Below, piece by piece: positions 58,172 to 61,953 of a stretch of DNA of 64,000 bases (position 1 is its first letter; the number at the start of each line of letters is the position of its first letter). The stretch is taken from NCBI RefSeq assembly GCF_003018255.1, contig NZ_CP027440.1. One strand, 5' to 3'. This DNA comes from Escherichia coli (GTDB lineage Bacteria; Pseudomonadota; Gammaproteobacteria; Enterobacterales; Enterobacteriaceae). The notes under the pieces were generated by a model. It did not search any database. It had not been told where the DNA came from and worked only from the letters and a program-made list of their open reading frames with translations. Made by a program: the position numbers and the translations under genes.

Positions 58172-58939
58172 ATGGAACGAGGCACCGCGTCTGGCGGTGC
58201 CTCTTTACTTAAGGAATTTCATCCTGTGCAAACCCTTCAACAAGTTGAAAACTATACGGCGTTAAGTGAACGTGCCAGCGAATATTTATTGGCCGTGATC
58301 CGTAGCAAACCGGATGCCGTGATTTGCCTGGCGACCGGAGCCACGCCATTACTGACGTATCATTATCTGGTAGAAAAAATCCACCAGCAGCAGGTTGATG
58401 TCAGCCAGCTCACCTTCGTGAAGCTCGACGAATGGGTGGATCTGCCATTAACGATGCCTGGTACCTGCGAAACTTTCCTGCAACAGCATATCGTGCAGCC
58501 GCTGGGGCTACGTGAAGACCAGCTCATCAGCTTTCGCTCCGAAGAGATAAATGAGACAGAGTGCGAACGGGTAACGAACCTGATTGCGCGCAAAGGCGGT
58601 CTGGATTTATGCGTTCTCGGATTGGGGAAAAACGGTCATCTTGGGCTGAACGAACCGGGAGAAAGCCTGCAACCGGCCTGCCATATCAGTCAACTTGATG
58701 CCAGAACACAGCAACATGAGATGTTAAAAACCGCGGGTCACCCCGTGACTCGTGGGATCACCTTAGGCCTGAAGGATATTCTCAATGCCCGCGAAGTTTT
58801 GTTACTGGTGACTGGCGAAGGAAAGCAGGATGCGACAGAACGTTTTCTCACAGCTAAAGTCTCTACCGCTATCCCGGCTTCATTTTTATGGCTGCATAAC
58901 TATTTCACATGCATGATTGATGAGATGTGTCGTCGTTAA
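58172..58939 (+). CDS. agaI: Galactosamine-6-phosphate isomerase/deaminase-like protein
   Basis: NagB-like ORF; exact start uncertain (ATG 58172 or downstream). Confidence 0.8.
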   Translation: MERGTASGGASLLKEFHPVQTLQQVENYTALSERASEYLLAVIRSKPDAVICLATGATPLLTYHYLVEKIHQQQVDVSQLTFVKLDEWVDLPLTMPGTCETFLQQHIVQPLGLREDQLISFRSEEINETECERVTNLIARKGGLDLCVLGLGKNGHLGLNEPGESLQPACHISQLDARTQQHEMLKTAGHPVTRGITLGLKDILNAREVLLLVTGEGKQDATERFLTAKVSTAIPASFLWLHNYFTCMIDEMCRR

Positions 58940-58988: not shown

Positions 58989-59852
58989 TCACTCTCCCTG
59001 CTGCTCCAGCGCATACTTATACAGCGCATTTTTCTTCACGCCGTGAATTTCTGCGGCCAGCGCCGCCGCTTTTTTCAGCGGCAGTTCTGCCTGCAACAGC
59101 GCCAGCGTGCGCAGAGCATCGGCGGGTAAGTCTTCTTCCTGTGCTTTATGGCCTTCGACAATCAGCACCATTTCGCCTTTGCGACGGTTTTCATCTTCTT
59201 TGACCCACGCCAGCAGCTCGCCAACGGGCGCGCCGTGAATGGTTTCCCAGGTTTTGGTCAGCTCACGCGCCAGAACCACGTAGCGGGATTCGCCTAATAC
59301 CGCAACGATATCTTCCAGGCTATCTAACAGACGGTGGGTAGATTCATAAAAAATCAGCGTGCGCGGCTCCGCTTCAATAGCTTTTAGCGCATCACGGCGG
59401 CCTTTTGATTTGGCAGGTAAAAAGCCTTCATAACAAAAACGATCGGATGGTAAACCCGCGGCGCTTAACGCAGTGATAGCAGCACACGGCCCTGGTAGCG
59501 GCACCACGCGAATCCCCGCTTCACGACAGGTACGCACCAGATGGTAGCCAGGATCGTTAATTAGCGGCGTTCCGGCATCGGAAACCAGCGCAATGTTTTG
59601 CCCCTCTTGCAGTTTCGCCAGCAGCGTTTCGGCTTTTTGTTGTTCGTTATGGTCGTGCAGCGCAAACAACCGGGCATTAATCCCAAAATGTTGCAGCAAT
59701 AAACCGGTGTGACGCGTATCCTCGGCGGCAATCAGATCAACGGCCTGTAATACCTCTAATGCACGCTGGGTGATATCAGCCAGATTGCCGATTGGCGTCG
59801 GTACAATGTAAAGCTGGCCCTGAGAATTATCCGCCGATTGGTGTTGTTTCAT
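58989..59852 (-). CDS. rsmI: 16S rRNA C1402 2'-O-methyltransferase
   Basis: 287-aa ORF. Confidence 0.9.
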
Positions 59853-59916
59853 TGTGTCGTCCGTATTGCCGATTTAATATTGAGCATTGCGTAAAAAAAA
59901 TATCACTGGATACATT

Positions 59917-61953
59917 ATGGTACCCTCAACATTTTCTCGTTTGAAAGCCGCGCGTTGTCTGCCTGTTGTTCTGGCAGCCCTGATTTTCGCCGGTTGTGGC
60001 ACCCATACTCCCGATCAGTCCACTGCTTATATGCAGGGCACGGCGCAGGCTGATTCTGCCTTTTACCTGCAACAGATGCAGCAAAGTTCTGATGATACCA
60101 GGATCAACTGGCAATTACTCGCCATTCGTGCACTGGTGAAAGAAGGTAAAACCGGACAGGCGGTGGAGTTGTTTAACCAACTACCGCAAGAACTGAACGA
60201 TTCTCAGCGTCGCGAGAAAACACTGCTGGCGGCAGAGATTAAACTGGCGCAGAAAGATTTTGCTGGCGCGCAAAACTTGCTGGCGAAAATCACACCTGCC
60301 GATTTAGAACAAAACCAGCAAGCCCGTTACTGGCAGGCAAAAATCGATGCCAGCCAGGGGCGTCCTTCCATTGATTTACTGCGCGCGTTAATTGCTCAGG
60401 AACCGCTGCTCGGTGCGAAAGAAAAGCAGCAGAATATTGACGCCACATGGCAGGCGCTCTCCTCCATGACTCAGGAGCAGGCGAATACGCTGGTGATCAA
60501 CGCCGACGAAAATATTCTGCAAGGCTGGCTGGATTTGCAGCGCGTCTGGTTTGATAACCGTAACGATCCTGACATGATGAAAGCTGGGATCGCCGACTGG
60601 CAGAAACGTTATCCGAACAACCCGGGCGCGAAAATGCTACCAACGCAGTTGGTTAACGTAAAAGCGTTTAAACCCGCATCGACCAACAAAATCGCCCTGC
60701 TGTTGCCGCTGAATGGCCAGGCAGCGGTATTTGGTCGCACTATTCAGCAAGGCTTTGAAGCGGCGAAAAATATCGGCACTCAGCCAGTGGCGGCCCAGGT
60801 AGCAGCCGCACCTGCCGCAGACGTAGCAGAACAACCTCAGCCGCAAACCGTGGATGGCGTTGCCAGCCCGGCACAAGCTTCGGTTAGCGAGCTGACCGGT
60901 GAACAGCCTGCGGCCCAGCCGGTACCTGTAAGCGCCCCGGCGACAAGCACCGCAGCGGTAAGCGCACCCGCAAATCCATCCGCAGAGCTGAAAATCTACG
61001 ATACCTCATCACAACCACTTAGCCAGATCTTAAGCCAGGTTCAGCAGGATGGTGCGAGTATTGTGGTCGGTCCGTTGCTGAAAAATAACGTTGAAGAGTT
61101 GCTGAAGAGCAACACCCCGCTGAACGTGCTGGCACTGAACCAGCCGGAGAACATCGAAAACCGCGTCAATATTTGTTACTTCGCGCTTTCACCGGAAGAC
61201 GAAGCGCGCGATGCAGCGCGTCATATTCGTGACCAGGGTAAACAAGCGCCGCTGGTGCTGATCCCACGCAGTTCATTGGGCGACCGCGTAGCCAATGCGT
61301 TTGCGCAAGAGTGGCAGAAACTGGGCGGCGGCACCGTTCTGCAACAAAAATTTGGTTCCACCAGCGAATTACGCGCGGGTGTTAACGGCGGTTCTGGTAT
61401 TGCTTTAACGGGTAGCCCGATTACTCCCAGAGCGACAACCGACTCCGGCATGACGACCAACAATCCAACGCTGCAAACCACGCCAACCGATGACCAGTTC
61501 ACCAATAATGGCGGTCGTGTCGATGCGGTGTACATTGTGGCAACGCCGGGTGAAATCGCTTTTATCAAACCGATGATCGCCATGCGTAACGGTAGCCAGA
61601 GCGGTGCAACGCTGTACGCCAGTTCCCGCAGCGCACAAGGCACCGCAGGCCCGGATTTCCGTCTGGAGATGGAAGGCTTGCAGTATAGCGAAATCCCGAT
61701 GCTGGCAGGCGGTAATCTGCCGTTAATGCAGCAGGCGCTCAGCGCGGTGAACAACGATTATTCGCTGGCTCGCATGTATGCGATGGGCGTCGATGCCTGG
61801 TCGTTGGCAAATCATTTCTCACAAATGCGCCAGGTTCAGGGTTTTGAAATCAACGGTAATACCGGAAGCCTGACGGCAAACCCGGATTGCGTGATTAACA
61901 GGAAGTTATCATGGCTACAGTACCAACAAGGTCAGGTAGTCCCCGCCAGTTAA
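59917..61953 (+). CDS. lpoA: Outer-membrane lipoprotein activator of PBP1A
   Basis: Start [27 protein letters not shown] (lipobox); 678 aa; low-complexity Ala/Pro/Gln-rich linker. Confidence 0.9.

Follow-up and report, generated by a model that had tools for sequence, protein, structure and literature searches.

The lpoA gene (also called yraM) was found in the window, a 64,000-nucleotide stretch of the Escherichia coli contig NZ_CP027440.1 (RefSeq assembly GCF_003018255.1), with rsmI on one side and yraN on the other (Table 1). The name lpoA is the RefSeq annotation at identical and near-identical E. coli loci, including a locus that is 100% identical. The product matches Pfam family PF04348 (LppC) with E=1.8e-135 and 453 bits (cut-off 28.8), in two stretches that leave out the region 1 insertion described below. 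[quoted passage not shown] RefSeq loci, Pfam and PDB thus agree with a sequence-only reading of this DNA, in which the gene had been named lpoA.

LpoA faces the periplasm from the inner leaflet of the outer membrane, in which it is anchored. A lipobox, LAALIFAGC, was recognized by eye at residues 19-27 of the window protein as part of a predicted lipoprotein signal peptide, and its Cys27 is nearly invariant among 120 homologues. PDB matches and an AlphaFold2 model indicate an N-terminal TPR-like helical domain followed by a C-terminal domain resembling type I periplasmic binding proteins; in the model, residues 47-249 are all-helical and the rest is a domain of alternating strands and helices. 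The window protein is 99% identical to LpoA of K-12. Only one of the six differences, E325D, is located in the region described below. K-12 LpoA activates PBP1A via its C-terminal domain (PMC4111904, PMC4632607), and lpoA is dispensable if PBP1B-LpoB is intact (PMC4632607).

The annotated start of lpoA, the ATG at 59917 (MVPST...), is conserved among homologues. The program-made list of open reading frames stretches the frame upstream to a TTG at 59887, which is a mechanical extension only. At the other end, yraN starts at 61911 in a different frame and overlaps the end of lpoA (61953) by 43 nt, and it is annotated so in all fetched genomes. On the rsmI side (58989-59852, minus strand), agaI (58172-58939) directly adjoins rsmI, without the yraH-K fimbrial operon. 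Nissle 1917 and other strains (L020-L023) are arranged in the same way, and K-12-like strains have yraJ/yraK, some of them frameshifted, between agaI and rsmI (L024-L028).

Table 1. Features of lpoA in the window; positions are those of the window
Feature	Position	Strand	LpoA residues	Remarks
lpoA (yraM) CDS	59917..61953	+		678 aa; outer-membrane lipoprotein activator of PBP1A
Flexible region 1, insertion in the C-terminal domain	60769..60990	+	about 285-358
N-terminal variable flank, Ala/Pro/Gln-rich	60790..60852	+	292-312	GCCGCA...GCCGCA microrepeat; site of the 9-nt (AAP) deletion
Conserved island	60853..60897	+	313-327	core V315-x-S-P-x-x-A-x-x-S-D/E-L-T327
C-terminal variable flank, Ala/Pro/Ser/Thr-rich	60898..60960	+	328-348	imperfect 30-nt direct repeat D3; duplication site
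Conserved loop end, (S)APANPSAE-L	60961..60990	+	349-358	runs into strand LKIYDT
Region 2, second flexible insertion	61393-61509		493-531	pLDDT 49-73; dN/dS 0.17-0.25

Composition and structure of region 1

The stretch from 60784 to 60990 (plus strand, lpoA frame) encodes the 69 residues 290-358 of LpoA. It had been described as a low-complexity stretch rich in Ala, Pro and Gln, and this description was accurate in its coordinates, frame and quoted peptide. The stretch contains 20 Ala, 11 Pro, 9 Val, 7 Gln and 7 Ser, and it lacks aromatic, basic, Cys, Met and Ile residues. Its Shannon entropy is 3.00 bits, compared with 4.02 bits for the whole of LpoA. When segments of 69 residues were taken along the protein, those of lowest entropy all started within residues 282-291, and the minimum of 2.96 bits was reached by none of 2000 shuffles of LpoA (mean 3.54, sd 0.07, lowest 3.08). 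The local G+C content is 0.64-0.67 in the stretch and about 0.50-0.56 around it; such a rise is expected from GCN and CCN codons.

This stretch is region 1 of E. coli LpoA and is already known. Jean et al. (2014, Structure 22:1047; PMC4111904) revealed by NMR that region 1, N285-P351, is flexible; gene, residues and flexibility are the same, and there is no essential difference between the two. They also reported that regions 1 and 2 are both absent in H. influenzae LpoA and are both unfolded according to IUPred prediction (PMC4111904). Consistent with this, residues 292-350 have no counterpart in a HMMER alignment to 5KCN. The AlphaFold2 model, which was built on an alignment of 120 homologues, has a mean pLDDT of 87, and pLDDT is predicted to fall below 50 only at residues 295-344. 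It climbs to 86-97 from about residue 351. Thus, the earlier suggestion that the stretch is probably disordered is borne out by both the published NMR data and the prediction.

The word "linker", which had been used for the stretch, does not fit. In the AlphaFold2 model, region 1 sits between helix 270-286 and strand 357-362 (pLDDT 97-98), and these two elements belong to the same domain. [quoted passage not shown] The flexible regions of LpoA were still called "of unknown function" in a review of 2015 (PMC4632607), and our search of the later literature for a function of these regions found none assigned. What we add to the published region 1 is its nearly fixed length in E. coli, a dN/dS of about 0.19, its expansion in Enterobacter and a conserved island.

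Comparison with other flexible segments

Ala/Pro-rich interdomain linkers occur in the E2 chains of 2-oxo acid dehydrogenase complexes and in the hinge of OmpA. They resemble region 1 in composition and in their flexible, extended character, but they join separate domains, whereas region 1 of LpoA is an insertion in a single domain. A closer parallel is region 2 of LpoA itself, S493-N531, which is also flexible, lies in the same C-terminal domain and is absent in H. influenzae (PMC4111904). Like region 1, region 2 combines low pLDDT, raised dN/dS and rare deletion variants; unlike region 1, which is rich in Ala, Pro and Gln, it is rich in Thr, Asn, Ser and Gly and is shorter. A 16-residue deletion in region 2 was observed in the rare E. 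coli variants P0004 and P0011.

The proline-rich N-terminal region of LpoB is likewise a disordered, low-complexity periplasmic segment of a lipoprotein that activates a class A PBP (PMC4632607). As a terminal tether, up to about 145 A long, it lets the globular domain reach PBP1B (PMC4632607). LpoA reaches PBP1A via its rigid, elongated two-domain body (PMC4111904, PMC4632607). Region 1 cannot act as such a reach-extending tether, because it is an internal loop and both of its ends are fixed in the fold.

Length of region 1 among genera

The loop is short in most of the family. Among 105 full-length representatives of clusters at 50% identity, loop lengths between the fold anchors start at 7 residues and have their median at 13, and lengths of 40-106 residues are found only in the closest relatives. 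Most LpoA/LppC members thus have about 8-14 residues, compared with 72-145 in Enterobacteriaceae. The long loop, whose sequence is rich in Ala, Pro, Gln, Ser, Thr and Val, is specific to Enterobacteriaceae and has grown from a turn that normally measures 8-14 residues. Measured from anchor to anchor in the 120 closest homologues, the loop of typical E. coli has 74 residues; lengths are 72-83 across Escherichia, Citrobacter and Salmonella, whereas Enterobacter, Lelliottia, Pseudescherichia and relatives have 98-145. In this last group it is the C-terminal flank that has expanded, by up to about 70 extra residues. Proteins of the Enterobacter group differ in steps of four residues (AQPA/TQPT-like), and judging from these sequences the length probably varies among Enterobacter strains. 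All genera retain the biased composition, devoid of aromatic and basic residues, although the sequence itself turns over.

Length of region 1 within E. coli

A 381-nt query across the stretch found matches in 5424 of 5426 complete E. coli genomes. Of 60 genomes taken at even intervals along the match ranking, 58 had the canonical span, and the canonical length of 2037 nt and 678 aa was also shared by all 11 distinct alleles of a second sample, drawn independently on rsmI (10 genomes and the window). Of the two exceptions in the first sample, GF4-3 has a 9-nt deletion in which AAP (residues 297-299) is lost, and AST85 has a perfect 30-nt tandem duplication which adds VSAPAASTAA. The deletion, represented by the alleles L002 and L019, maps to the N-terminal flank, where two GCCGCA copies 9 nt apart border it; at the duplication, the bordering copies are of GTAAGCGCCCC and 30 nt apart.

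The indel alleles were counted by allele-specific junction queries. The 9-nt deletion was found in 11 of 5408 E. coli genomes. The AST85 junction query (megablast) matched 17 genomes, a search that covers AST85-like backgrounds; on these, the duplication is present only in AST85, and 16 other genomes with the same divergent allele have two copies. Both indel alleles together account for 12 of about 5400 complete genomes. Length variants of region 1 are therefore rare in E. coli, at about 0.2-0.3% of complete genomes. We considered whether the stretch is a VNTR or contingency-type segment and rejected this, as there is no head-to-tail array and the indel alleles are so few. Tandem Repeats Finder with a minimum score of 30 detected no tandem-repeat array in the stretch, which has only three imperfect two-copy repeats of 14-16 nt.

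Larger deletions exist in the protein database. The main E. coli LpoA cluster has 10,877 member sequences, and the singleton E. coli variants P0006 and P0008 have deletions of 34 and 40 residues in the stretch. A 9-nt direct repeat, GCGGCCCAG, is located at 60790-60798 and 60910-60918, 120 nt apart, and the end points of the 40-residue in-frame deletion of P0008 (638 aa) lie exactly at its two copies. A similar deletion of 42 residues is found in the Salmonella variant P0064. It is possible that these three singletons are defective alleles or products of misassembly.

The sequence-only reading had proposed that the stretch is prone to length variation between strains. This holds between genera, but within E. 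coli length is nearly constant. Still, neither length nor sequence is identical in all strains, since there are rare indels and many amino-acid polymorphisms.

Sequence variation and selection

Two samples of alleles were compared. Sample 1 consisted of 19 distinct E. coli alleles spanning the identity range of the region itself, which inflates its piS (0.153). Sample 2 consisted of 11 distinct alleles from genomes chosen on the neighbouring rsmI, and its piS was 0.087. In sample 1, region 1 had a dN/dS of 0.180, compared with 0.045 in the remainder of lpoA and 0.022 in the folded part of the C-terminal domain; in sample 2 the values were 0.187, 0.039 and 0.023, respectively. The ratio is thus unchanged between the region-chosen and the rsmI-chosen sample. 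Constraint on region 1 is relaxed about 4-8-fold, and selection is still clearly purifying. Most substitutions in region 1 are conservative and exchange A, T, S, V and P for one another. Within E. coli, dN/dS of sub-regions inside region 1 is noisy.

We also considered a local divergence anomaly and rejected it: nucleotide identity between the window and K-12 is 97.4% in the region and 96.9% in rsmI, and the window strain is a different lineage across the locus. AST85 (L003, NZ_AP043644.1) and the 16 related genomes share a divergent rsmI-lpoA locus that is common to one lineage; compared with the window, its rsmI is 92.5% identical, and the aligned part of the 381-nt query is about 89% identical. 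This degree of divergence suggests that the rsmI-lpoA locus of the AST85 lineage may have been imported from a divergent Escherichia lineage.

A conserved island inside region 1

Region 1 is not uniform. We compared its parts with 14 other Enterobacteriaceae and among the 19 distinct E. coli alleles. Mean identity to the other Enterobacteriaceae is 33% in the N-terminal flank and 33-36% over the two flanks, and amino-acid variants were found in 7 of 21 codons of the N-terminal flank and in 10 of 21 codons of the C-terminal flank. In contrast to the flanks, the island between them has a mean identity of 68%. It is kept in Escherichia, Citrobacter, Salmonella, Enterobacter and relatives, and within E. 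coli only position 325 varies (E/D, common). The loop end reaches 80%, which compares with 79-93% for the folded domains. Synonymous variation in the island is at the background level among E. coli alleles; therefore, the constraint acts on the protein.

AlphaFold2 gave no confident structure in the island; it placed there two helical turns of three residues with pLDDT 34-37. We looked for a prior description of the island, VxSPxxAxxSDLT, in the LpoA literature and found none. The natural variants P0006, P0008 and P0064 delete 34-42 residues including the island, and for this reason the island would not be essential for viability; however, lpoA as a whole can be lost when PBP1B-LpoB is intact, and the three singletons may be faulty sequences. 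Tentatively, its conservation pattern may mark an Enterobacteriaceae-specific short linear motif for a periplasmic partner, which might be PBP1A, a hydrolase like PBP4 or another envelope factor; we regard this as possible but rather improbable.

Alternative explanations

The strongest competitor to a retained, weakly constrained loop is that region 1 is selectively neutral, has no function and is kept only because deletions are rare. No function has been assigned to it in the literature after 10 years, most family members do not have the expansion, the flanks are only 33-36% identical among genera and natural deletion variants exist. However, dN/dS of 0.18-0.19 is well under 1, an island of 13-15 residues and the loop end are 68-80% conserved across genera (near the level of the folded domains), the biased composition is retained in all genera and over 5400 E. 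coli genomes show practically one length. The neutral loop is disfavoured by dN/dS below 1, by the island and loop end and by composition, and we give it a minor share of the probability, slightly above that of the linear motif. Much less probable is a hypervariable interdomain linker whose length commonly differs between E. coli strains. The rare length variants, with the deletions of 34 and 40 residues among them, would agree with it, as would the large differences between genera and the four-residue steps among Enterobacter proteins; moreover, 5 of the 10 deletion-bearing E. coli-like variants touch region 1, which is about 11% of LpoA. Against this, the stretch lies within one domain and has no tandem-repeat array, and canonical length in 58 of 60 and in 11 of 11 cases, with 12 indel alleles in about 5400 genomes, makes such a linker very unlikely.

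Diversifying selection, for example on an exposed epitope or a contact site for phage or host, would explain why 33-48% of the flank codons have amino-acid variants and why the region has a heavier low-identity tail than rsmI, with 976 genomes for the region query and 20 for rsmI in the 90-95% identity band. Yet dN/dS of 0.18-0.19 is not above 1, the swaps are conservative and, as is well established, LpoA faces the periplasm, so we judge this idea even less credible than the hypervariable linker. Finally, the signal might come from something other than LpoA, namely an antisense or alternative-frame gene, a small RNA or a regulatory site. An antisense ORF of 79 aa does overlap the stretch (60637-60876), but it has no Pfam match, every indel in the stretch keeps the lpoA frame (9, 30, 102 and 120 nt), and the lpoA frame shows no drop in synonymous variation below background. 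An Rfam scan of 3 kb gave no match in the stretch and a single match elsewhere, far below threshold, and scans of the stretch for promoters and terminators gave no promoter-like or terminator-like sites. The probability of a non-LpoA feature is negligible.

Interpretation

[quoted passage not shown] The loop joins the first long helix of this domain (270-286) to the next strand (357-362). Since the fold holds its two ends next to each other, the sequence of the loop, and over long times its length, can change while the domain stays undisturbed. The sequence drifts under weak purifying selection, and the length is altered by occasional slippage at microrepeats. Judged by conservation, the low-complexity flanks may serve as flexible tethers or spacers, and the central island may be the sole part under sequence-specific constraint, perhaps as a site of transient contact. 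The role that LpoA has throughout the family does not require the long loop, since homologues with a short one exist.

The finding itself is of little importance, as it concerns a textbook-style disordered loop, on record as flexible since 2014, in a well-studied protein. The island offers a minor lead rather than a discovery, and it is an obvious target of mutagenesis for the function of the flexible region of LpoA. If the island is indeed a motif for a periplasmic partner, it would give this flexible region a defined role.
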